The notes under the pieces: generated by a model
Database searches by the model: none
Seen by the model: only the letters and a program-made list of their open reading frames with translations
Told to the model about the DNA's origin: nothing
Program-made: the position numbers and the translations under genes
Part shown: positions 3,581 through 40,960 of the stretch, piece by piece
Position numbering within the stretch: position 1 is the stretch's first letter
Layout: each line of letters begins with the position of its first letter
From: Escherichia phage vB_EcoP_C
Sequence record: NC_047807.1
Length of the DNA: 44,970 nucleotides
Strand: one strand, 5' to 3'

Positions 3581-5993
3581 ACATATCCTCTAACTTGTCT
3601 AAACGATAACGAGTATAAGCAGCCTCCAAGATTAAGATTTCACTATATCTAACACCAAACTGACCTTCTTCGAAGGAGACAATGCCGAAGTCGATTGCAT
3701 CTAACCCTTCGGATGCAAAAGCAGCTACAATGTCTTGTGCCAATACACCAAAGTGAGTGTGGTGCACACCACGAGACATCTCACCAATCAACTTGTACTG
3801 CTTGAAGCTAACCTTACCCCATGCCTTTAGTACACTCTCATCAATACCTTGTGATCCATACTTATGAGTGGCATCAGACGTAATAATAGGGTCACTTGTA
3901 AGATGGATAGTAGTGAATCTATTACGAGGGCCTCCAGCAGGATACACGTTATCATTGTATGGCATGATAGCCCCACTTTTGAACAAGTGCTCATTGGCAT
4001 TATATACTGCGCGTCTAGAAGTACTAGAACCTGCTCCATGTAAGGTAATTTGCGCACCGGTATCTGCTGCTGTACCCTCTCCCCCAGAGATGATAACACG
4101 TTGTGCGGTTGGGTTATCCGTTGGTATAGTCTTACCAATGAACCCATATTCACCTTCCATCAGCATCTCTGAGCGAATATTAGCACTTGTACTTGCCTTC
4201 AGGGTAAGGTGTTCGACAGTCATATCTGCGGCAACTACCTCTCCTGATAAGTGAAGTGGAGCAGGAATAGTACGAATACCATCAGTACCCATGAAGGTAG
4301 GTATAGCCTGACCCGGAGTTGCACCATATGTAAACTTACGAGATACACGATTGTCATTTGCAATCTGCATCTTATAGCAGTATATATCAGTGGGGTGTCC
4401 ATGACCTTTAAATGGGTCTTTATCTTTGTTGTCACCATAAGTCATTGGGTTGAAATGGTTTTCTCCACCAAAGATATAGTAAATGTAGCTGTCTTTAACT
4501 ACTACCGAACCTACACCTACACTAGAGTTCACAATGTCACCCTGATAGATTTGGTCTGTGATGTTAACCCATTCAATGTCATCTGCATTCCACTTGTTTA
4601 CATTCAATCGTGCATAGAAGGTACGAGGATAAGATGCCTTGTAACGATCATCTGGTGCACCTGCTTCCCATTCATTTTCTGCACGTTCTGAACCAAACAT
4701 AATAAGGTCATCTCCTACTTTAGCAAAAGGTAAGGTAGTATGATGAACATTATGTGGAAATCTTAGTGACTCCCAAGTTTGACCTATATCTCTACTACGA
4801 TGCAGAGAGCTTCCTAGTCGATCGCCACGAGTACCACGAGTGATAAGGTACAATACACCGTCATAGTACTTGATGCATGGCTCTGCCGCATCTGGTTCAT
4901 ACTCAGATGGTATCTGACGACGAACATAATTAGATGGGCTATTGAAAGCATCAGGGAAGTAGAAAAGCCCAACTTCTCGTGGAGCTACATCACCTTGATG
5001 ATAGCCCATAACAAAGCCATTGTTATCAATAGTAGCAAAGCTATGCACCTCTGTGACACGAGGGATTAGACCAAGATCTGTCTTACGCCAAGGAGATTTA
5101 TGGAAAGAAGTACCCATGTGCCAACTCTTTCCAGCGTTATTCAAATCTGAAGTCTGCTGGTTAGGTGTAAGAACCGTGAAGTTGTCCTTATCTATTACTG
5201 TTGCAACCTTCATATCACCAGATACACCTGTTACCGCAGAGTTAGAGAAGTTAACAAAATCACCAACGAAGAGTCCGTGATCAGGTACATGGATTGTTGC
5301 ATATCTCTGATTTGCAGCCTTAGTGATACCACCAGTAAGATGCAGACTACGAGACATAGGGCGATCCCACAATGCACAATTGGTTAGTGCGTTCTTGGCT
5401 AAAGTACGTGTTTCAATCATGGCAAACAGACGGTTGCGACATACACCCATACTCATACAATGATAGTTCACTGTAGGGTAATCTGGATGCAGATCAGTTA
5501 ACCACTCTGGAGTAGACCATGTTTGACCATCGTCACCAGACTTAACCCATGATACATGCAGACGACTAACACCATGACGGTCGCTACCCATGTAAGGTGC
5601 ATATATCACGTTCTCATATACAAACGCTTTGTCTTGAGGCCAAGCATTGTAATAAGGGTTATCCGTGATTTTATAGAGTTCACCATTGATAAAACCTTTA
5701 CTCACATAGTAAAGAGGTTGACCTGCTAAACGTTCCCATACGAAGCGGGTGTTATAGAATCGCTCCATATCAGGTAAAGATGATACTTTGTAAGTAGCAC
5801 CAGCACCGTCAATTCTCTTACCTGAAGCCATCGCTGCATTTACTGCATCTTGGTCGTTTGTCTTACCATCACCTTTGGCTCCAAAATCTTTAAGCGATAC
5901 AACCTCGGTGAGCTTGTCATCCAAGTTACGCCAGATTGCACCTGCTATTTTACTCTTGAATTTAACTAATGAAGAACCTAGTCTTTGAATCAT
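3558..5993 (-). CDS. Tailspike endosialidase (K1 capsule depolymerase) with C-terminal intramolecular chaperone domain, 811 aa
   Basis: Recalled similarity to phage endo-N-acetylneuraminidases; C-terminal chaperone-like block (...SDATHKYGSQGIDESVLKAWGKVSF...); strong AAGGAGG SD. Confidence 0.85.
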   Translation of the reverse strand: MIQRLGSSLVKFKSKIAGAIWRNLDDKLTEVVSLKDFGAKGDGKTNDQDAVNAAMASGKRIDGAGATYKVSSLPDMERFYNTRFVWERLAGQPLYYVSKGFINGELYKITDNPYYNAWPQDKAFVYENVIYAPYMGSDRHGVSRLHVSWVKSGDDGQTWSTPEWLTDLHPDYPTVNYHCMSMGVCRNRLFAMIETRTLAKNALTNCALWDRPMSRSLHLTGGITKAANQRYATIHVPDHGLFVGDFVNFSNSAVTGVSGDMKVATVIDKDNFTVLTPNQQTSDLNNAGKSWHMGTSFHKSPWRKTDLGLIPRVTEVHSFATIDNNGFVMGYHQGDVAPREVGLFYFPDAFNSPSNYVRRQIPSEYEPDAAEPCIKYYDGVLYLITRGTRGDRLGSSLHRSRDIGQTWESLRFPHNVHHTTLPFAKVGDDLIMFGSERAENEWEAGAPDDRYKASYPRTFYARLNVNKWNADDIEWVNITDQIYQGDIVNSSVGVGSVVVKDSYIYYIFGGENHFNPMTYGDNKDKDPFKGHGHPTDIYCYKMQIANDNRVSRKFTYGATPGQAIPTFMGTDGIRTIPAPLHLSGEVVAADMTVEHLTLKASTSANIRSEMLMEGEYGFIGKTIPTDNPTAQRVIISGGEGTAADTGAQITLHGAGSSTSRRAVYNANEHLFKSGAIMPYNDNVYPAGGPRNRFTTIHLTSDPIITSDATHKYGSQGIDESVLKAWGKVSFKQYKLIGEMSRGVHHTHFGVLAQDIVAAFASEGLDAIDFGIVSFEEGQFGVRYSEILILEAAYTRYRLDKLEDMYATNKIS

Positions 5994-15571: not shown

Positions 15572-15602
15572 AGTTCCTCCATAGTGCCTATCATAAAGAC
15601 CT

Positions 15603-15618
15603 GTCTCACATGTGAGAC
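15603..15618. repeat. Perfect 16-bp palindrome GTCTCACATGTGAGAC
   Basis: One of six perfect copies of GTCTCAC-NN-GTGAGAC; intergenic between internal virion protein genes. Confidence 0.8.
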
Positions 15619-15635
15619 AAGCCTTGAGTTAGGTA

Positions 15636-32081: not shown

Positions 32082-32453
32082 TCAAAACTCTTCCTCTTCG
32101 CTAACCGGAGCTTCCGGTGCAGACACTTCTACTGCCGGAGCTTCAGCTTCTTCAGCAGCTTTAACTTCTTTCACTGGTTTACCAGCAGCAATCCAATCCA
32201 GATATTCAGCTACGATGTTAGCCTTACCGATCTGGGCTTTGTCAGCCTGCTCAGGGAAGCAAGCACGAGCGAACTCCAGACCATCAGCGAAGTTACCCAT
32301 GCTGTCAATCTTAGCCTGAGCTTCTTCACGGGTATCGTAAGCCTTAGTACCAGCTACCAGTTGATCAGCTTCATCAACGATAATGAAAGACTCAACGGAT
32401 ACCAGAGCAGCACCTTTAACAACACGGTTTACGATAGTTTCAATCTTGAACAT
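32082..32453 (-). CDS. Hypothetical protein with acidic C-terminal tail ending ...SEEEEF (123 aa)
   Basis: AAAAGGAG SD; directly downstream of promoter 32504-32526. Confidence 0.6.
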   Translation of the reverse strand: MFKIETIVNRVVKGAALVSVESFIIVDEADQLVAGTKAYDTREEAQAKIDSMGNFADGLEFARACFPEQADKAQIGKANIVAEYLDWIAAGKPVKEVKAAEEAEAPAVEVSAPEAPVSEEEEF

Positions 32454-32786: not shown

Positions 32787-33593
32787 TTAATATTCCGCGT
32801 CCTCATCCATCTCCGGTGCAGGAGTATCTTCTGCTTCAGGTACTTCCTGTGGAACAGACTCACCAGTATCCAGAGATTTACGATTAGCTGGGGTAGCATC
32901 TTCCTCGTCTTTCTTCTTAGCCTTCTTCCATTCAGGGTCTTCTTCACGAGCAGCTTTGATAATAGCTTCTACGTGAGAGCCAGCAACAGACAGGTTCTTA
33001 CCACGAGGTGTCTCGTTCAGGAAGTATTGACGTACCAAGTTAGCTGGGATGTCATCAAGGATTTCTTTGGTCAGCTTGTCGAAGGTGATATGACCTGTCA
33101 TAGACAGACCTTCCTCTTCTACCTGAGCCAGTACAAGCTTCTTCAACTTATCAGGCATACCGCCAAAGCCTTTCCAGTTAACATACTTGAAAGTACCATC
33201 ATCATTCTTGTCGCCAGAGCCAACCATAGTTGCAGTCAGACATTCACCGATAAAATCATCGAAGCCACCCAGCAACTCTTTAGGGTCAACTGCATTCAGG
33301 AACTTAGTCAGTGTTGCCTTATCACCAGACTTCAGAGGCACAGCCATCCATTGTTCCATGCGAGAATCATCTTCATTCTTATCGTCGTCACCCATCAGGA
33401 TAATCTTAACAAGAACAAAGTTTGCTGGCTTCTTAACTTCAGTGGTATTACCTTTCTTAAAGATATCTTGGAAGGAACCAACATGAATGATGCCAGAGAT
33501 TACTGCTTCATGATCACCAACTTCAGGGTTCTTAAATACTTTACCTTCAGCTTTAGTAACCTGAGCACCAAAATCAAAATCACCACGTGCCAT
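32787..33593 (-). CDS. Candidate ssDNA-binding protein (acidic C-terminal tail ...EMDEDAEY), 268 aa
   Basis: Position in replication module; acidic tail ending in an aromatic residue as in T7 gp2.5; primary sequence not obviously gp2.5-like. Confidence 0.5.
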   Translation of the reverse strand: MARGDFDFGAQVTKAEGKVFKNPEVGDHEAVISGIIHVGSFQDIFKKGNTTEVKKPANFVLVKIILMGDDDKNEDDSRMEQWMAVPLKSGDKATLTKFLNAVDPKELLGGFDDFIGECLTATMVGSGDKNDDGTFKYVNWKGFGGMPDKLKKLVLAQVEEEGLSMTGHITFDKLTKEILDDIPANLVRQYFLNETPRGKNLSVAGSHVEAIIKAAREEDPEWKKAKKKDEEDATPANRKSLDTGESVPQEVPEAEDTPAPEMDEDAEY

Positions 33594-33976: not shown

Positions 33977-34354
33977 TTATTTAGTCAAGTTGTCCAGTTC
34001 TATTTCCAGCATAACAATCTCTTTCTTCAGGCTGTCAGATGCAGCTTGATTTACAAGAGCAATTGATGCCTTGTTCTCTTCAAATTCAGCTTTCAGGCTG
34101 TCACGCTCTTGCTGGTGACGTGCCAGCATATCTTCTACCTCTTTGACTTGACGTGCATTTAGTTCATCACGAGATGCATAGTAGCGGTTATGACAGTCAA
34201 TCATTTGAGAACTACGATGTTCTTCAACTTTAACTTGCTCTGCCTGTACTGCTTCGATGCGAGCCTCAATAGCTTTGATAGCCTTGGACTTGAACTTATT
34301 AGCAAGACCACGAAAGTATTGAGCCACGAATACCAGAGTAGTTACCATAGACAT
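33977..34354 (-). CDS. Hypothetical coiled-coil protein (125 aa)
   Basis: ORF track; AGGAG SD; heptad-like charged/hydrophobic pattern. Confidence 0.6.
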   Translation of the reverse strand: MSMVTTLVFVAQYFRGLANKFKSKAIKAIEARIEAVQAEQVKVEEHRSSQMIDCHNRYYASRDELNARQVKEVEDMLARHQQERDSLKAEFEENKASIALVNQAASDSLKKEIVMLEIELDNLTK

Positions 34355-34418: not shown

Positions 34419-34441
34419 TCCTTCTATAGTGTCCAGTAAAT
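34419..34441 (-). promoter_or_regulatory. SP6-type phage RNAP promoter (ATTTACTGGACACTATAGAAGGA)
   Basis: Promoter family member; intergenic downstream of DNA polymerase. Confidence 0.75.
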
Positions 34442-34509
34442 CATGTTAGACTAAATAAGTAGGAATAAGTTATTCATAAAGGCCACTCGTAAGTGACCTT
34501 GAGTATAAC

Positions 34510-34608
34510 TCAGTCGTAGTTACCATCACAATCTGGGTCAATGCCAGAGAAAGCCCAGAATACTACCATAAATAATATGACTCCAAGAATAATAAAAGAT
34601 GCCTGCAT
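34510..34608 (-). CDS. Tiny membrane protein (32 aa), translationally coupled
   Basis: Hand translation MQASFIILGVILFMVVFWAFSGIDPDCDGNYD; ATG overlaps preceding stop (TGATG). Confidence 0.3.
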   Translation of the reverse strand: MQASFIILGVILFMVVFWAFSGIDPDCDGNYD

Positions 34609-34724
34609 CAATCGTAACCCTCCTCTTCATCAGGTATATCTAATCGCATACTTCCATAGCAAGCAAGCATAAGGAATATAAGAAAGAAAGTGGAGAATAG
34701 GCAAACAATATCAAACCTGTCCAT
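34608..34724 (-). CDS. Tiny membrane protein (38 aa), translationally coupled to DNA polymerase
   Basis: Hand translation MDRFDIVCLFSTFFLIFLMLACYGSMRLDIPDEEEGYD; ATG overlaps DNA polymerase stop. Confidence 0.3.
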   Translation of the reverse strand: MDRFDIVCLFSTFFLIFLMLACYGSMRLDIPDEEEGYD

Positions 34725-37270
34725 CAGTGTGTTTCCTTCCAACTTGCACCAATCTTATACTCACCTGCCATCGGACAACGCATCTTCAGGTACTGACCCG
34801 CCCAAGTCATTGCGTCGGCAATGATATGCCCTGCACGGTGATAGCGACGCTGGCAATGAAGTACACCAGCATCAGCATCAACGCTAACGAGATTTGCAGC
34901 AGACCACATACGTCCTTCAGAATCCACATGAACACGTTTCTCCTCTGCATCGAACACTGCTTTCACAGCAGCCTTCTCTGTTTCGAACCCTTCTAAGGTG
35001 AAAGGCAAGTCGTAGTTGAGATACAAGACCTCATCTTCAGGGACTTCCATCTGGATTTCATCGTGCACGTTAGCTATACCGCAAGGGTTTCCCATGCTAT
35101 CTAAGGCCACACCTTCCTTGCGCATCACTGCAAACGCCCTGACCAATGCGTATTTCATACACAGAGAACCAGTCATCTGGAGTAGTACGTTAAGCATAGT
35201 GTGCTCTTTAAGTTCACCACCAGACATACGGATGCGACCCCAATGACCATCAGGTGCTTGTAGGTAGCCAAACTTGTTACCTTGTGCGATAACATTCTCA
35301 CGAAGACGTGCAAGAGATGGTAGTTCAACCTCAAATCTTGCCACAACTTCCTCCATTTCTTCCTCAGTAACACCACATACTGCTGCAAGGTTAGCTATAC
35401 CAGACCCATATAGGAAGGCATATATAAATGTCTTCGCCATGTCACGCTTAGGAAGACCAGCCTTCATTTGATTATGGGTGTGAATGTCACCATGCAGTAC
35501 AATATCTTGATATTCAGGGTCATTCATGAAGTGAGACAGTACACGTAGTTCAAGACCAGCACCATCACAACCAAGGATTAGCTTACCTTTACCGGCTATG
35601 AATAAATCACGTAAAGGATACAAACCACGGGCAGGAATATTAACCACGTTACGATGACGCATACGGAACGTAGAAGTTCCAATACTAATAGCAATAGCTG
35701 GCACACGCCATTCTCCGTCATCCTTGTCTGACGTAGGCCAGCATCCGTACCTTTCGTAGTATTGCTGCGCATTGATTCCTAACTCCTTGTTAAATGCTAC
35801 AGGTACAAGGCCGCGACACTTTCGTATACCAGCTTGCGAAGGCCACACCCCCTTCTGGTCGAAGGCTTCAACGTCACCACGGTTGAGGATCTGACCACGA
35901 CGGGATACGAGTATGTACCATGCAGCGATACCCAAGCACCAATCAGGGACTGTTTTACCTTCACGTGCGGCTCTCTCTTGCCATAAAGTAAGGGACTTTT
36001 CATTTATCTTCCCACTCCAAGGCTTGGGTAATACGCCATGCTCATCGAGATGCGCTTGCTCGGTATCGTTAAATTCAACACCTTTCCATCCATAATCATA
36101 GAGCACTTGCTTAACTGTATCCCTGTTACCCAAGGGAATCTCTTCGAAAGTAACAGGCGAGTAAGCGCCAATCCACTTGATGCTTGGCGTGTCATTACGG
36201 TTTCCTCTAAGGTGAGGAAAGTCTTTCTTGACGCTAGCCGACCAATCACCAGACTTAGTAGTGACACTCCATACTGTCTTGCGATCTCCTCGTCTCTCGG
36301 CATGAAGAAAGTGTGAGGGGTCAAGGACAGTAGGTATATTGTTGCTAGCTCCATACTCATTTGCGCGTTGGCATACTTCATTCTTTTCTTCCGGTTTAAA
36401 AGGTTTAGACTTGATACGCATAGGCATGTGCGGACGGAACGCTGCGACTGTCTCATCAATCTTAGCGTCCAATTCCTCGCATCGTGCTAATGCTTTATCT
36501 ATATCCAGACGGAATCCACGCTCGGCCTGACGGCTCATCTCCAGCGCCACAATGGACTCCATGTGGAAGGCTGTCTCAATACCTAGGCCAGTGCGTTTAT
36601 TCACGCCACGGCGTTTGTGCTCCGTCCATTCTCCGTTAAATAGCCAGAGGAATAGGTCACGGCCTATCGCCACGTCCTCGCGTACACGATGTACCATGTG
36701 GTCAGTTAGTTTAGACCAATCCTCGTTCTCCGGCTTATAACGGCCTATACGAATGCCGTGCGCCTCAATTGAGTGAGGGGCTACGTTACCCATGCCTTTG
36801 GCGTATGCTTGCGGAGGGAGGCGTCTATCGGGGTTTAACAGGCGACTCATGACCAGCGTATCCATGACGCGTACCGGACACAGGTCAGCGCGGAGTCTGC
36901 CCTTGCCGCGTCTCTCGGTATAGTTAAAGCCTTTCCAGATATCAGGGAATGCTTTCTCAAATAGAAGGCCGTCGTACCCTAGGAAGTTCTGTGAGACGAT
37001 GGCTTCGCAGTGCTTAAGGAAGTTAACACCGTCAACCAATGTTCCATCTTGATGGCCTTCCCATTCTTTTAGGCGTTCTCTTGCTTCAGGGTCACGCATC
37101 TCGTATGGGTCAAAGAAGAGGAACTCCTCTGTAGTAAGCAAATCCATGCAGCAAATGATGTGCACATCTTCGCGGTGGCCATATCGGATAGCATCCAGCA
37201 GGCCTTTAGCCTCAGAATCCATCACTAAGATGCGGCCTTCTGCTTCCTTCTTCCAATCAATTGATTTCAT
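34724..37270 (-). CDS. DNA polymerase (T7 gp5-like family A), about 848 aa
   Basis: Pol A motif B region (KTFIYAFLYGSG) and 3'-5' exonuclease N-terminal region; track start is TTG, first ATG at 37270 has GGAG SD. Confidence 0.9.
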   Translation of the reverse strand: MKSIDWKKEAEGRILVMDSEAKGLLDAIRYGHREDVHIICCMDLLTTEEFLFFDPYEMRDPEARERLKEWEGHQDGTLVDGVNFLKHCEAIVSQNFLGYDGLLFEKAFPDIWKGFNYTERRGKGRLRADLCPVRVMDTLVMSRLLNPDRRLPPQAYAKGMGNVAPHSIEAHGIRIGRYKPENEDWSKLTDHMVHRVREDVAIGRDLFLWLFNGEWTEHKRRGVNKRTGLGIETAFHMESIVALEMSRQAERGFRLDIDKALARCEELDAKIDETVAAFRPHMPMRIKSKPFKPEEKNEVCQRANEYGASNNIPTVLDPSHFLHAERRGDRKTVWSVTTKSGDWSASVKKDFPHLRGNRNDTPSIKWIGAYSPVTFEEIPLGNRDTVKQVLYDYGWKGVEFNDTEQAHLDEHGVLPKPWSGKINEKSLTLWQERAAREGKTVPDWCLGIAAWYILVSRRGQILNRGDVEAFDQKGVWPSQAGIRKCRGLVPVAFNKELGINAQQYYERYGCWPTSDKDDGEWRVPAIAISIGTSTFRMRHRNVVNIPARGLYPLRDLFIAGKGKLILGCDGAGLELRVLSHFMNDPEYQDIVLHGDIHTHNQMKAGLPKRDMAKTFIYAFLYGSGIANLAAVCGVTEEEMEEVVARFEVELPSLARLRENVIAQGNKFGYLQAPDGHWGRIRMSGGELKEHTMLNVLLQMTGSLCMKYALVRAFAVMRKEGVALDSMGNPCGIANVHDEIQMEVPEDEVLYLNYDLPFTLEGFETEKAAVKAVFDAEEKRVHVDSEGRMWSAANLVSVDADAGVLHCQRRYHRAGHIIADAMTWAGQYLKMRCPMAGEYKIGASWKETH

Positions 37271-37475
37271 AGATTGCTCCAAAGTATTTAACCCTATAAC
37301 CAAGTCCTAATAAAGAATTAGGTGTTAGATGAGGATAGTTATATGCTAATTCATTGTGGTACTTATCAAACAAAGCAGCCTCTTTCTTAGACCTGCAATG
37401 CCCACACTTACCATCAATACGACTGCGATAACCTTTACCGCAAGAGCAAACCTTACTGACTTTAATAGCTTTCAT
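37257..37475 (-). CDS. Small Cys-rich (zinc-finger-like) protein, about 72 aa
   Basis: CxC...CxxC pattern (VCSCGKG...CGHCR); start moved to second ATG with GAGG SD. Confidence 0.5.
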   Translation of the reverse strand: MKAIKVSKVCSCGKGYRSRIDGKCGHCRSKKEAALFDKYHNELAYNYPHLTPNSLLGLGYRVKYFGAIYEIN

Positions 37476-37569
37476 ACATTGCCTCTGTTTCGTAGTAGTC
37501 ATCTGAACGTTCAGGTTTTGAGTTCATTGAATCTTGGAAATCCCAATCAGAATCATAATCACGTGGCAT
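37462..37569 (-). CDS. Small acidic protein (35 aa)
   Basis: Hand translation MPRDYDSDWDFQDSMNSKPERSDDYYETEAMYESY; strong GGAGG SD. Confidence 0.35.
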   Translation of the reverse strand: MPRDYDSDWDFQDSMNSKPERSDDYYETEAMYESY

Positions 37570-37600
37570 AATGCACCTCCAATCAATATGATGAAAGGCT

Positions 37601-37616
37601 GTCTCACGTGTGAGAC
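37601..37616. repeat. Perfect 16-bp palindrome GTCTCACGTGTGAGAC
   Basis: Copy of GTCTCAC-NN-GTGAGAC; intergenic. Confidence 0.8.
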
Positions 37617-37626
37617 AACCCTTTAC

Positions 37627-37836
37627 TTATCGACTGCGTGTTACAGTTAATTTCTGGCCCATGTATTTGCCTTGGTGTGGCTCCCAAGTTGCCTCTTTGA
37701 TAACTTGCTCGCGCGTCAGGCTATTCTTCTTGGCCTCAGCCATAGTTAACTGTGCGAACAGGAAGGCTTGGTTAGTAATCTTGGCTTGCAGGTCTTCATG
37801 ACCATCGAACATTTTAAGACTATGTTTATTCTGCAT
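37627..37836 (-). CDS. Hypothetical protein (69 aa)
   Basis: ORF track; ATG start. Confidence 0.5.
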   Translation of the reverse strand: MQNKHSLKMFDGHEDLQAKITNQAFLFAQLTMAEAKKNSLTREQVIKEATWEPHQGKYMGQKLTVTRSR

Positions 37837-38044
37837 GTTTCACCATAAAGCTGCCGATTACATTAAACTCCTCACGGAACTCTTTTTCAGTCAAATGACC
37901 GAAAAGTTCCATCTGAAAACTTGCACTAAGACTGGCACCTATTAATGCAAACCCCTTTGAAGTACCATAGGGCTTAACACCATCTGGTGCTACAACTGCA
38001 TAGCATTTATGAGGTCCACGCATATAAATTAATACCTTAGTCAT
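37826..38044 (-). CDS. Hypothetical protein (72 aa)
   Basis: ORF track; strong TAAGGAG SD. Confidence 0.55.
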   Translation of the reverse strand: MTKVLIYMRGPHKCYAVVAPDGVKPYGTSKGFALIGASLSASFQMELFGHLTEKEFREEFNVIGSFMVKHAE

Positions 38045-38054
38045 GATTAACTCC

Positions 38055-38738
38055 TTAGATATTCACGTATGTTTCTTCAGTAACGATAGGTAGGTACAGT
38101 AATTCTTCACCATTTAAGATGTGAAGACCTTTCAACCCTTGCTTACGAATAATGCCTTCTATAGTGTCGGCAAAATGCTTATTAATTACACGTCGTTGCG
38201 TACCTTGTTCTGTGATTGCATGGTCAACATCCATGATTCGCACAGGTACATTTGGATGCATCATGGCTTCTCCAATCTTTACCATAGCTTGTCCTGTGGA
38301 TTTACCCAATGCACGAGTATTAAACTGTGTAACACCTAATGCAGTGCCACATTGCTTAATCATCTCACTTTGAGTCTTACCAGTGATTACATTGCGACGC
38401 TCTTTCTTGAGTGTGGTTTTCTTTTCTGCCATGTACTCTGCTAGTGTTTGAGGACCAGCACCATAATAAAGAGGAGCTAGGAAATTCTTAAGCATCTGGC
38501 GAGCACATTTATCGCAAACCTCATCATGTATGCACTTACATTGATTGTTTATCTCTACAATCTTTTCAAGATATTTATGTGCTGTCTTCTTGTGGTAATA
38601 TTGCTTAACACCACTGCGATATTCTACATAATACAGGTTCTCACCTACAAAGGTTACAACACCACGGCAAAGATAGCGACTTGAAACTTTCTTGATGTTG
38701 CGTACAAAGTCACCTACATTCAACACTAAGTTATACAT
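38055..38738 (-). CDS. Hypothetical protein with Cys cluster (about 227 aa)
   Basis: ORF-track frame, start moved to ATG at 38738 (GGAG SD); CKCIHDEVCDKC cluster. Confidence 0.6.
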   Translation of the reverse strand: MYNLVLNVGDFVRNIKKVSSRYLCRGVVTFVGENLYYVEYRSGVKQYYHKKTAHKYLEKIVEINNQCKCIHDEVCDKCARQMLKNFLAPLYYGAGPQTLAEYMAEKKTTLKKERRNVITGKTQSEMIKQCGTALGVTQFNTRALGKSTGQAMVKIGEAMMHPNVPVRIMDVDHAITEQGTQRRVINKHFADTIEGIIRKQGLKGLHILNGEELLYLPIVTEETYVNI

Positions 38739-38777
38739 AATCAATCTCCAGTTATTTAATGTACTTAATAAGAGCCT

Positions 38778-38793
38778 GTCTCACAGGTGAGAC
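38778..38793. repeat. Perfect 16-bp palindrome GTCTCACAGGTGAGAC
   Basis: Copy of GTCTCAC-NN-GTGAGAC; intergenic. Confidence 0.8.
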
Positions 38794-38810
38794 AAGCCCT
38801 GATAAATACA

Positions 38811-38972
38811 CTAGATAAGGCGTGTTACAATAAAGAACATTGACATAAGAAAACCAGATGCAACGATAAGTTTCACAGCTTTCTTGAATCCATATCGTGC
38901 AGCATAATCTGCGATCACAAGCATGAATAGGATCTCAATACCGATATTCAATACTGGTTTAATAATTTCCAT
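38811..38972 (-). CDS. Small membrane protein (53 aa), translationally coupled to primase/helicase
   Basis: Hand translation MEIIKPVLNIGIEILFMLVIADYAARYGFKKAVKLIVASGFLMSMFFIVTRLI; ATG overlaps helicase stop (TAATG). Confidence 0.45.
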   Translation of the reverse strand: MEIIKPVLNIGIEILFMLVIADYAARYGFKKAVKLIVASGFLMSMFFIVTRLI

Positions 38973-40960
38973 TAAAACTCCTGTTCATCGTCAAAGGTTG
39001 TCTCTTCTATAGTGTCCGGTAAATCAGGTACTTCTTGTTGCCTTGCTTCACCTGTATCAAATGACTTAGTACGGGCTTGTGGTTCTAGCAGTCGGCCCGT
39101 AGCGATGTCACCCTTAAGCATAATCTTAGTACCAGAGTAAATCCCTTGATCCCTATCTTTAACACAGGAAATATAGGTAGTAGTTCGCTCATCTAGTGTC
39201 TCTGCCCTCGTGTTCCTTTCGATGCCCAAGGCATATGATGCCCAAAAGCCGATAGCGCCTGAGCCTCGGAAGTCAGAAAGGATAACCTCGCCACCTTCTT
39301 CGTGTTGGGTACGGTTTGCCGGAGGACGTGTAAGGTGAGAGACAAGGAATATAGTAACTGGGTGTCGGTCTTTGATAGTACCAATCCGCTTGACGCATTC
39401 ATCAAGTGCACCAACCTTCCCACCAAAAGCACGCTCATCTAATTTAATCCCCGTTAAGTTATCAATGATGATATTAGAAATGCCCATAGCCTCAAACTCT
39501 AGGCAAGTTTGCTCTACCTTCTCCATAGAATAGTCGCCTTCTAGGTCAGCCACAAATAGCTTTCCTGTATCAGCCACATAATCAATGGCAGCGTTAGCTT
39601 CTTCCTCGGTGTAGTCGAACACCTCACGGTATCCGTCTTCTTTCGGGTCGTTGGTTGGCGGTAACTCAATACGCTTATCAATCCACTTGCCGATAAAAGC
39701 ACGGGACACCTTGACCATTGGGTCTTCTGTAGAAATGATGCCTACAGATTCACCGTGTTCTTCAATGAGGTGCTTAACCACTTCGCGAAGGAACTCAGTC
39801 TTACCTACACCAGAGCCTGCACCTACAATGATAAGCTGGTTCTTACGAATACCTAGCGTTACCTTGTTCAGCTTAGGCCAAGGCCATGATAACCCTTGCT
39901 CTGGACGTGCAGCCTTGAGCTTATCCCTTTGAGATGCGATAGATTTAATCTGGCTACCAAAGACTTCATCAGATGACTTGGCATTAAACCAAGCATCAAC
40001 AAACTCTTTAGCCTTGCCAGCCATCAATGCCTTGTTAGCATCTTTGCAACCAGAGGGATATTCGAGGATGTAGGATTTGCCAGGAAACAGGCGAGCAGCT
40101 TGTTGGTTCTGCTTCTGCCCTACCTCATCCCCATCAAAACCCCATATAATCTTCTTGAATTGGGCGATATGCTCACGGTTCTGCACTATCTCTTCAAGGC
40201 AAGACTCGCCTTTGTTGACAGACCATACATGGTATGGCTGGCCTTCCCACTTAGTACCCTTGGCAGAATCAAGGAGCATCTGCTGCGCTGCTAGTGCATC
40301 AAGTTCACCACCTACAATAAGCAAGCAATCCTTTCGTCTCCCCTTGTCTAACACGTGAGACAAAGTATTCATACCGAAAAGATCTTGCATACCAAAGAGT
40401 TTACCTAAATGACCAAACTTAAAATCTTTAGGTAATGTGCGACACTTAGCGCCTACTAGCTCACCTTTTTCGAAGCGTGGATAGTAATGCCGTGAGACTC
40501 TACCCTCTTCATCGTGCCCAACACGTACATCATACAATGCGCAAATGTCGCCGCGAATGTGTCTGGAAACAAGGTTCTTACGCTTAAGCGTGAGGAACCA
40601 TTCAACATCAAGTTTCCACTCTGCTTCTTGCTCTGCCCTTTCTTGTTCATTCATGACCTCCCAACGGTCTTTCATACGCATACCACCAAGTGCGATGGCG
40701 CGTAGCTTAGGGTCGCTAATCTTCCCTTCCTTCTCCATCTCTTTAAACTGAGAAGGTGTATATTTGATGTTTCCAGTGATAGGTAACTCTGTTATCTCGA
40801 TGCCACCTTCCGGCTTATGGTAGTAGGGTCTGCCATTATCATGGAAGTGACCACGGTTACAGTATCCTGCCCCGTCGTCAAAGATCATTAAATGATTGCC
40901 AGTAATATCATGTCCGTTCTTTTGGCAAGCAGGACACGGTACATTCTGAATAATAGCCAT
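38972..40960 (-). CDS. DNA primase/helicase (T7 gp4-like), 662 aa
   Basis: N-terminal Cys4 zinc motif (CPACQ...CNRGH), Walker A GAGSGVGKT; acidic C-terminus ...DDEQEF. Confidence 0.9.
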   Translation of the reverse strand: MAIIQNVPCPACQKNGHDITGNHLMIFDDGAGYCNRGHFHDNGRPYYHKPEGGIEITELPITGNIKYTPSQFKEMEKEGKISDPKLRAIALGGMRMKDRWEVMNEQERAEQEAEWKLDVEWFLTLKRKNLVSRHIRGDICALYDVRVGHDEEGRVSRHYYPRFEKGELVGAKCRTLPKDFKFGHLGKLFGMQDLFGMNTLSHVLDKGRRKDCLLIVGGELDALAAQQMLLDSAKGTKWEGQPYHVWSVNKGESCLEEIVQNREHIAQFKKIIWGFDGDEVGQKQNQQAARLFPGKSYILEYPSGCKDANKALMAGKAKEFVDAWFNAKSSDEVFGSQIKSIASQRDKLKAARPEQGLSWPWPKLNKVTLGIRKNQLIIVGAGSGVGKTEFLREVVKHLIEEHGESVGIISTEDPMVKVSRAFIGKWIDKRIELPPTNDPKEDGYREVFDYTEEEANAAIDYVADTGKLFVADLEGDYSMEKVEQTCLEFEAMGISNIIIDNLTGIKLDERAFGGKVGALDECVKRIGTIKDRHPVTIFLVSHLTRPPANRTQHEEGGEVILSDFRGSGAIGFWASYALGIERNTRAETLDERTTTYISCVKDRDQGIYSGTKIMLKGDIATGRLLEPQARTKSFDTGEARQQEVPDLPDTIEETTFDDEQEF
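39002..39024 (-). promoter_or_regulatory. SP6-type phage RNAP promoter (ATTTACCGGACACTATAGAAGAG) inside 3' end of helicase gene
   Basis: Promoter family member. Confidence 0.7.

Follow-up and report, generated by a model that had tools for sequence, protein, structure and literature searches.

Within a 44,970-nucleotide stretch of DNA from Escherichia phage vB_EcoP_C (sequence record NC_047807.1; hereafter the window), three very small open reading frames (ORFs) encoding hydrophobic proteins lie directly behind the genes for two replicative enzymes, the DNA polymerase and the primase/helicase. The phage belongs to Vectrevirus in the Molineuxvirinae, the SP6 branch of the T7-like phages (the K1E/SP6 group), and the minus strand carries all genes of the window. 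An earlier note on this DNA had proposed that the three ORFs are real micro-proteins coupled to the replication enzymes, and the positions that it gave, together with the three stop-start overlaps, are confirmed from the sequence. Named after their counterparts in phage K1E, the ORFs and their upstream neighbours are:

34724..34608, minus strand: gp13.5, 38 amino acids, MDRFDIVCLFSTFFLIFLMLACYGSMRLDIPDEEEGYD; one base of its ATG also belongs to the polymerase stop codon TGA (TGATG)
34608..34510, minus strand: gp14, 32 amino acids, MQASFIILGVILFMVVFWAFSGIDPDCDGNYD; its ATG shares the A of the gp13.5 stop codon TGA (TGATG)
38972..38811, minus strand: gp9.5, 53 amino acids; the A of its ATG is also the final base of the primase/helicase stop codon TAA (TAATG)
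34724..37270, minus strand: DNA polymerase gene, upstream neighbour of gp13.5
38972..40960, minus strand: primase/helicase gene, upstream neighbour of gp9.5, with an acidic C-terminus (...DDEQEF)

The three ORFs are K1E/K1-5 gp13.5, gp14 (SP6 gp15) and gp9.5, and have been known and annotated since the K1-5, K1E and SP6 genomes. The 4.9-kb region analysed is 100% identical to Escherichia phage vB_EcoP_D (KY295893) and 97.7% identical to phage K1E, whose RefSeq record (NC_007637) annotates all three as genes 13.5, 14 and 9.5, the first two directly behind gene 13 (polymerase) and the third directly behind gene 9 (primase/helicase). KY295893 annotates two of them, the 32- and 53-amino-acid genes, and the 32-amino-acid gene is called by Prodigal in GRNsp51; the suggestion that the ORFs fall below ORF-calling thresholds was thus mistaken. 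Identical proteins are recorded from K1-5 and K1E (AAR90054/CAJ29420 for gp13.5, AAR90055 for gp14 and Q2WC20 for gp9.5), the exact protein sequences occur in public databases on 61, 93 and 49 contigs respectively, and SP6 gp15, the counterpart of gp14, is 87.5% identical. Each protein also matches a PHROG profile: gp13.5 matches PHROG 15860 (E = 2.8e-30, residues 1–38 of 38), gp14 matches PHROG 4539 (E = 3.7e-17, protein residues 1–28 on profile positions 4–32) and gp9.5 matches PHROG 15806 (E = 2.5e-38, residues 1–53 of 53). All three PHROGs are labelled 'unknown function', the K1E, K1-5 and SP6 genes are all listed as 'hypothetical protein', the genome paper of UAB_Phi78 lists its 32-amino-acid ORF as 'unknown' (PMC4837284), and in the literature we found no paper on the function or expression of gp13.5, gp14 or gp9.5. 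Two other genes of the K1E RefSeq record, 13.1 and 13.2 (L001 2998–3582; window ~35800–36460, minus strand), lie wholly inside the polymerase gene in another frame and are probably spurious gene calls.

The hydrophobic cores of the three proteins are 18 to 19 residues long, with a maximum Kyte-Doolittle value over 15 residues of 2.83 for the 38-residue, 2.97 for the 32-residue and 2.47 for the 53-residue protein. As the earlier note had described, gp13.5 and gp14 each consist of one predicted transmembrane (TM) helix and an acidic tail ending in GYD or NYD. The helix of gp13.5 spans I6–G24 and is followed by the invariant tail PDEEEGYD, while that of gp14 spans F5–G22 and is followed by the invariant tail DPD[C/Y]DGNYD; residues 24–32 of gp14 (DPDCDGNYD) are unchanged in 11 distinct orthologues except for C27Y, found in SP6. 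The gp14 protein contains neither Lys nor Arg. The idea of an architecture common to all three holds for this pair and fails for gp9.5, which has two hydrophobic helices joined by a basic loop (RYGFKKAVK), ends in ..FFIVTRLI and has no acidic tail. An AlphaFold2 model of gp9.5 built with 19 homologues is a two-helix hairpin (helices 4–27 and 29–52; mean predicted local distance difference test score, pLDDT, 90.6), and a fold search with this model against BFVD gave no match at E <= 0.001. By the positive-inside rule the basic loop of gp9.5 should face the cytoplasm. All three ORFs are T-rich, with 37–40% T overall and 45–55% T at second codon positions.

Shared descent of the gp13.5 and gp14 tails is possible. 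A profile-profile comparison of the two proteins (hhalign) aligns only the 8-residue tail, at a probability of 1.4% and E 0.038, and in the DNA alignment both genes end in TACGAYTRA adjoining a hairpin. The loss of gp14 in CrRp3 looks like recombination between these TACGAYTRA gene ends, judging from the sequences.

We regard it as very probable that gp13.5, gp14 and gp9.5 are real coding genes, and the evidence for this comes from chance expectation, from conservation of the frames and from the pattern of substitution within them. For the first, sequence was simulated from the dinucleotide composition of the strand and scored for an ATG overlapping a stop codon and opening an ORF of at least 30 codons with a hydrophobic core. 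Such a coupled hydrophobic ORF is expected ~4e-5 times per junction, or ~0.002 times over the 59 gene junctions of the genome, and two consecutive coupled ORFs are expected ~5e-5 times, so that chance does not account for the ORFs. Conservation of the reading frames in relatives had been named in the earlier note as a check on its proposal, and a tblastn search finds them intact and at full length in 66 (gp13.5), 67 (gp14) and 49 (gp9.5) phage records, down to ~74–79% identity. That the ORFs are chance stretches that go untranslated would agree with their shortness and with our finding no experimental evidence of their expression. With even one coupled hydrophobic ORF expected so rarely per genome, with the frames conserved in ~50–67 genomes through substitutions of the coding type and with a good Shine-Dalgarno sequence at each start codon, this reading is close to untenable.

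Selection on the frames was measured as the ratio of nonsynonymous to synonymous polymorphism (pN/pS) over the distinct intact nucleotide versions at IMG/VR and GenBank loci, numbering 15 for gp13.5, 11 for gp14 and 10 for gp9.5. In frame, pN/pS is 0.22 for gp13.5 (95% codon-bootstrap confidence interval, CI, 0.12–0.39), 0.25 for gp14 (CI 0.12–0.46) and 0.46 for gp9.5 (CI 0.25–0.89), against 0.86 and 1.30, 0.81 and 1.06, and 0.63 and 1.55, respectively, in the two shifted frames; at most 1% of codon bootstraps reach a pN/pS of 1. Variable sites at codon positions one, two and three number 15/8/20 in gp13.5, 11/7/18 in gp14 and 14/6/16 in gp9.5, so that in each gene the third position varies most and the second least. 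The tails are the most constrained part, with pN/pS of 0.015 (gp13.5) and 0.023 (gp14) over the last nine codons, where the residues are invariant across several synonymous versions (GAG/GAA, GGT/GGA, GAT/GAC, CCA/CCG and AAC/AAT). The EEEGYD end of gp13.5 is kept through such synonymous changes also where gp14 is missing, in CrRp3 and CC2, and between SP6 and the phage analysed here the DNA of gp14 is 93% identical while that of the polymerase gene is 81% identical. Intact frames, a pN/pS well below 1 only in the proposed frames and invariant tails together support the view of the earlier note that the micro-proteins are real. A 30-amino-acid ORF overlapping them in another frame (34630..34538, minus strand) was rejected as a gene, the shifted frames having a pN/pS of 0.8–1.3.

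These measurements also bear on the possibility that the ORFs are translated and functionless, proto-genes reached by reinitiation through a built-in Shine-Dalgarno sequence, in which a T-rich spacer encodes hydrophobic peptides and conservation comes from overlapping RNA signals. There is something to be said for it: the positions behind the two enzymes turn over fast, with unrelated ORFs in each lineage and some of these under no detectable selection (see below), the tail codons of gp13.5 double as the Shine-Dalgarno sequence of gp14, and T-rich ORFs fit a de novo origin of membrane peptides from T-rich sequence (PMC7005711). The 'TM-first' proto-genes described in that work resemble our ORFs in being T-rich, tiny, hydrophobic, restricted to one lineage and subject to rapid turnover of unrelated ORFs at a site, but the three ORFs are already under clear purifying selection, and de novo origin is for them only a possibility. 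An account without function does not explain why pN/pS is 0.22–0.46 in the annotated frames alone, why tail residues stay invariant while their codons change, why the gp13.5 tail is kept where there is no gp14 to translate, or why gp14 is closer to SP6 than the polymerase gene is, and we hold it to be decidedly improbable.

The distribution of the genes is patchy. CrRp3 and CC2 have gp13.5 and lack gp14, gp14 alone adjoins the polymerase stop codon, in the place of gp13.5, in SP6, UAB_Phi78 and L006, and L007 and many others have neither. Presence or absence of gp9.5 corresponds to a precise indel between the helicase stop codon and a downstream hairpin. Decayed alleles are found as well: in ULINTec6 gp13.5 is frameshifted and gp9.5 has lost 6 codons, in Raoultella phage P3a a nonsense codon interrupts gp9.5, the gp14 of L045 is frameshifted, and P0006 and P0039 are frameshift variants in public assemblies. 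By their patchy presence, the precise indels and the decayed alleles, the three genes are accessory, modular and dispensable. We also note that gp9.5 is present where the helicase tail reads ..ETTFDDEQEF and absent where it reads ..ETNFDEESEF (window 38972 region against L003, L007, L011 and L017), and these tail variants would point to a recombination boundary inside the last helicase codons.

Homologues seem on the searches made to be confined to SP6-like phage genomes of ~45 kb. Among 5.8 billion clustered proteins, relatives of gp13.5 and gp9.5 were found only on phage contigs of ~44–45 kb; the gp13.5 search was made with a concatenated gp13.5 and gp14 query, which found gp13.5 clusters only, and the wide search with gp9.5 found only relatives at least 74% identical, on phage-sized contigs. 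For gp14, an exhaustive phmmer search found a single representative at 50% identity among 1.84 billion proteins. None of the relatives of the three proteins has a Pfam domain or a functional name, and the three proteins themselves gave no match at E <= 1 in Pfam, NCBIfam or PADLOC, with defence, anti-defence and exclusion families included. A host origin found no support either: 5,426 complete E. coli genomes were searched at the DNA level and none gave a match. Two NhaA antiporters are listed in the gp13.5 cluster; they have no alignable similarity to gp13.5 and were set aside as a clustering artefact.

All three ORFs overlap the preceding stop codon in the manner of translationally coupled pairs, whose stop and start overlap or abut. 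Overlaps of one base are found at 10 of the 59 junctions of the genome, and overlaps of some kind at 24, those of tail-tube and internal-virion genes included. It is doubtful that translation of the micro-ORFs depends on translation of the upstream gene, because a separate Shine-Dalgarno sequence precedes every one of them and gp9.5, besides, comes first behind a promoter. Nor is adjacency to the enzyme fixed, as a homing endonuclease lies between the polymerase and gp13.5 in NTNC80A, where gp13.5 is retained. Of the coupling to the replication enzymes that the earlier note had proposed, the overlaps themselves are thus real, but the frequency of such junctions, the separate Shine-Dalgarno sequences and the arrangements in NTNC80A, SP6 and UAB_Phi78 leave it no meaning specific to replication. 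Homing endonuclease insertions are seen in relatives at the polymerase/gp13.5 junction of NTNC80A (L079 5586–6014) and in the split primase/helicase gene of ULINTec6 (L084 1–1697), and the large terminase gene of the phage analysed here is also split by a homing endonuclease (KY295893 29449–32093).

The expression signals around the ORFs are as follows:

34734..34740, minus strand: Shine-Dalgarno-like GGAAGGA for gp13.5, in the polymerase codons W-K-E, ending 9 nucleotides before the ATG
34618..34625, minus strand: Shine-Dalgarno sequence GAGGAGGG for gp14, in the E-E-G codons of the gp13.5 tail
38978..38982, minus strand: Shine-Dalgarno sequence AGGAG for gp9.5, in the last Q-E codons of the primase/helicase (...DDEQEF*), 5 nucleotides before the ATG
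39003..39025, minus strand: SP6/K1E-type phage RNA polymerase promoter GATTTACCGGACACTATAGAAGA, inside the last 50 nucleotides of the primase/helicase gene
38776..38795, minus strand: conserved RNA hairpin CTTGTCTCAC-CTG-TGAGACAGG, closing the position, or slot, occupied by gp9.5
34479..34500, minus strand: conserved RNA hairpin AAGGTCACT-TACG-AGTGGCCTT, 9 nucleotides past the gp14 stop codon, closing the slot behind the polymerase
34420..34442, minus strand: phage promoter GATTTACTGGACACTATAGAAGG, starting the next transcription unit (125-amino-acid gene, 34354..33977)

The W-K-E codons that give GGAAGGA also precede gp14 in SP6 and UAB_Phi78, and CAGGAGTTT or GAGGAGTTT likewise precedes unrelated tiny ORFs in UAB_Phi78, Kenya-K30 and L018. 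A scan for SP6/K1E-type promoters gave 12 minus-strand matches in the window where 1.0 is expected by chance. The promoter at 39003..39025 has its predicted +1 G at 39007, which we place by analogy with the SP6 consensus promoter, 35 nucleotides upstream of the gp9.5 ATG, so that gp9.5 would be translatable without gene 9 from transcripts of its own. This promoter is conserved in Vectrevirus and in SP6 relatives with or without gp9.5 (the SP6 form is GAATTAGGTGACACTATAGAAGA), and it overlaps codons for the acidic C-terminal tail region of the primase/helicase.

The hairpin behind gp9.5 shows compensatory variants (TCCAAC/GTTGGA and TTTG../..CAAA) and is likewise kept with or without gp9.5. That behind gp14, in a unit that ends with gp13.5 and gp14, has 9 base pairs and a UACG loop, a fold energy of -19.7 kcal/mol and z = -3.35; it is 100% identical in SP6 despite the 81% identity of the polymerase gene, and L010 carries a compensatory variant. 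A scan for sigma-70 and terminator consensus sequences found no classical terminator past gp14. The hairpin there has no U-run, and it may be a site of RNase III cleavage or other processing, or a terminator for the phage RNA polymerase. A search of Rfam found no credible family covering the hairpins. Hairpins of the form TTGTCTCAC-N3/4-GTGAGACA occur as four intergenic minus-strand copies (38776–38795, 37599–37618, 40344–40363 and 15601–15620), apparently a regulatory RNA element that is repeated in SP6-like phages and absent from Rfam, and the 50-nucleotide stretch around 34479–34500 matches Vibrio phages N4 and ICP3 at 84%, there between internal virion genes. RefSeq and PHROG 7450 give the 125-amino-acid gene of the next unit (33977–34354, minus strand) the name 'polysaccharide chain length determinant protein'; all its Pfam matches are far under threshold and coiled-coil-like, and the name appears to be a propagated weak annotation.

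In distant SP6-like phages the same two slots hold unrelated tiny hydrophobic ORFs with good Shine-Dalgarno sequences:

Behind the polymerase, Vibrio phage phi-A318/Vp670: one ORF of 28 amino acids
Behind the polymerase, L042: one ORF of 33 amino acids
Behind the polymerase, L031–L048 clade: two ORFs of 28–32 amino acids
Behind the helicase, UAB_Phi78 and Kenya-K30: one ORF of 27 amino acids
Behind the helicase, L018: one two-helix ORF of 58 amino acids
Behind the helicase, L038 and L046: ORFs of 63 and 24 amino acids

The 27-amino-acid ORF, MDELGFWLFMVVCIVMINLDKLAMLIK, occupies in the Zindervirus phages (UAB_Phi78, Kenya-K30, SP6) the slot that holds gp9.5 in Vectrevirus (L008 4629–4712, L088 2320–2403, L012 ~4870–4960 and L087); its pN/pS is 0.33 from two sequences, and it is truncated in GRNsp51. 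In the L031 clade, for which we found no cultured relative, the two consecutive ORFs (X1 and X2; L031 8479–8673, also L032–L034, L044 and L048) have strong Shine-Dalgarno sequences and follow a polymerase ~54% identical to that of our phage; in one of them the C-terminus shows frameshift-like variation, and both may be proto-genes, which we do not count as proven genes. Within ~14 kb around the polymerase such ORFs are rare at other places, and in the rest of the window further non-overlapping candidates are confined to the lysis region, apart from one weak 27-amino-acid ORF with a GTG start inside a hairpin. A rough count gives about five unrelated families behind the polymerase against about five elsewhere over ~15 junctions, with a chance probability on the order of 1e-4; the count is crude, the loci are related and two of the analogues show no purifying selection.

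This pattern suggests that the two slots are hot spots for gaining small genes. On the simplest reading, the conserved terminus of the upstream gene brings a Shine-Dalgarno sequence to the point where a transcription unit ends, T-rich and hence hydrophobic ORFs (the small slot ORFs being hydrophobic because they are T-rich) are gained, tested and often lost, and gp13.5, gp14 and gp9.5 are those slot ORFs that came under selection.

A different meaning can be given to the same positions, namely that at the inner membrane the micro-proteins serve as tethers or regulators of the phage replisome, their cytoplasmic acidic tails mimicking the docking tails of T7-type helicase and single-stranded DNA-binding protein (SSB) and their gene position ensuring co-production. 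Outside the lysis cassette and apart from the weak GTG-start ORF, the window has no other small hydrophobic ORF that is free of overlap and preceded by a Shine-Dalgarno sequence, and all three lie directly behind the two replicative enzymes; unrelated ones recur at both positions in other SP6-like lineages; and acidic, aromatic-ended tails recur in the replication module, in the helicase (..DDEQEF), a 268-amino-acid protein (..MDEDAEY) and a 123-amino-acid protein (..SEEEEF). The codons for these three C-termini lie on the minus strand at 38975–38992, 32787–32810 (PHROG 862, unknown function) and 32082–32105 (PHROG 4429), and the 268-amino-acid protein may be the SSB. Phage phi29 supplies a precedent. 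Its p16.7, of ~130 amino acids, has a cytoplasmic domain that binds DNA and terminal protein. Together p16.7 and p1 are membrane proteins that anchor viral DNA replication (PMC4974454), and like our micro-proteins they are small, encoded by a phage and produced along with the replication genes. The proteins here differ in being only 32–53 amino acids long and dispensable, with acidic or no soluble parts and no sequence similarity; past the helix there are only 10–14 acidic residues and no DNA-binding domain, and no profile matches.

The resemblance to T7 is similarly partial. T7 gp4 helicase and gp2.5 SSB have short, very acidic C-termini with an aromatic residue, as does the helicase of the phage analysed here (..DDEQEF), and in the T7 proteins the C-terminal aromatic residue is itself the critical one. 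The micro-protein tails instead end in Asp, with Tyr at -2, and extend from a membrane helix, and gp9.5 lacks an acidic tail altogether. The genes are moreover dispensable and have been lost independently, and gp13.5 persists uncoupled from the polymerase in NTNC80A. An acidic tail beside a helix that no basic residues flank is more likely to be moved into the periplasm, and the DxDxDGxxD pattern of the gp14 tail is suited to surroundings where divalent cations are abundant. The slots are explained more simply by a Shine-Dalgarno sequence already present where a transcription unit ends, and two positional analogues are not under selection. A link to the replisome is for these reasons quite unlikely. 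We would give slightly less credence again to a bolder form, in which the recurrence of the slots reflects a functional need, the peptides tether or regulate the replisome and the gp13.5 and gp14 tails dock, like helicase and SSB tails, on a basic patch of the polymerase; if true, a T7-type phage would have a minimal counterpart of phi29 p16.7/p1.

Membrane integrity is often affected by phage peptides that are small and hydrophobic, and the micro-proteins could be lysis-timing or membrane-permeabilising peptides, whether holin-, antiholin- or pinholin-like or middle-phase depolarising toxins that shut down host energy metabolism or tune lysis. Their very small size and strong hydrophobicity agree with this, and gp9.5 is a two-helix hairpin like class II holins and pinholins; two helices in a protein of ~60–100 amino acids or less are also found in many unrelated small membrane proteins. 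The genes, though, are situated among those for DNA metabolism, at a distance from the lysis genes (KY295893 has its holin, D_52, a peptidase, D_45, and small genes beside them annotated elsewhere), gp9.5 has no charged hydrophilic C-terminal domain typical of holins, none of the three matches a Pfam or PHROG holin family, and a simple pore or depolariser needs no invariant acidic tail. We consider this reading unlikely, and it is, like the by-product and chance-ORF readings, less likely than the one we favour.

Comparison with other small proteins bears on which side of the membrane the tails lie. The gp14 tail is an exact match to the motif DxDxDGxxD, a match of sequence only, with metal binding putative; the gp13.5 tail does not fit it. 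The pattern Dx[DN]xDG is the signature of calcium-binding loops (EF-hand loops and 'calcium blades'; PMC3123361), and the gp14 tail D24-P-D-C-D-G-N-Y-D32 agrees with the linear motif including the ligand at position 9, but known loops of this type sit inside folded domains whereas that of gp14 is a free C-terminal nonapeptide of a 32-amino-acid protein. The coat proteins of Pf3 and M13 resemble gp13.5 and gp14 in having one hydrophobic helix and a short acidic segment. Their insertion is independent of Sec and dependent on YidC and the proton-motive force, with the acidic regions translocated. A basic cytoplasmic anchor on the opposite side of the helix is present in the coat proteins and missing from gp13.5 and gp14, which are to our knowledge not virion components. 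From the behaviour of these coat proteins and from the DxDxDGxxD motif we infer, by analogy, that the gp13.5 and gp14 tails face the periplasm. In function, the exclusion and immunity membrane proteins of the T4 Imm/Sp type are similar in being small, non-essential, membrane-embedded and expressed before the late genes, and small exclusion/immunity proteins or inner-membrane modulators are by this analogy the most likely functional class, even though the micro-proteins have no sequence or profile similarity to any function-bearing Pfam, PHROG, NCBIfam or PADLOC family.

The explanation we favour, with a probability of roughly 60%, is that gp13.5, gp14 and gp9.5 are genuine translated accessory genes, restricted to one lineage, for tiny inner-membrane proteins that are made in the middle phase and act on the envelope, and are not replisome subunits. 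Each slot would extend from the stop codon of a large conserved replication gene to the conserved RNA hairpin that ends the unit, and the purine-rich last codons of the upstream gene would provide a ready-made Shine-Dalgarno sequence in it; because these codons act in this way, any ATG in the slot would be translated along with the middle (DNA-metabolism) genes. In addition, gp9.5 would be the first ORF of transcripts from the promoter embedded in the end of gene 9. The single helix of gp13.5 and gp14 would anchor them in the membrane and the strictly conserved acidic tail would be the functional end, the invariant tails contacting a partner at the envelope. The proteins would then be dispensable fitness factors whose site of action is the envelope or membrane of the host, where they might serve, for instance, in keeping out other phages, in counter-defence or in membrane physiology, and the position of their genes would tell where a small gene can be acquired and expressed and nothing of its function. 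The sequences show that the genes exist, are coding and under selection, encode hydrophobic proteins, have Shine-Dalgarno and promoter contexts of their own, can be dispensed with and are narrowly distributed; their insertion into the membrane, topology, expression in the middle phase and envelope action are what we infer.

Several points weigh against it. The literature holds, as far as we found, no ribosome profiling, proteomics or genetics for the three proteins, and action on the envelope is argued by analogy alone, no homologue having a known function. Neither gp13.5 nor gp14 has a consistently conserved basic residue on either side of its helix, so that the sequence leaves the topology unsettled, and gp9.5 is under weaker selection, with an upper CI of 0.89. 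X1 and X2 of the L031–L048 phages show no purifying selection (pN/pS ~0.9–1.2, from 3–4 distinct sequences), and the slot pattern may partly consist of non-functional ORFs. Finally, recurrence behind the polymerase and helicase could mean a functional link to replication.

The direct importance of these findings is limited in that the genes are already present as hypothetical proteins in GenBank, RefSeq and PHROGs. What is added is that they are selected coding genes with a division of labour between a variable membrane helix and an invariant acidic tail, and that unrelated tiny hydrophobic ORFs have settled repeatedly at the two positions behind the replication genes. The K1E/SP6-like phages thus offer a compact system for asking what phage micro-membrane-proteins do, with the invariant tails as precise mutational targets, and for a second question, how such genes arise and disappear at sites that receive their Shine-Dalgarno sequence from a conserved gene upstream. 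As phages of this group are used against K1 E. coli and Salmonella, it has some practical value to know whether such accessory genes influence host range, exclusion or evasion of defence.

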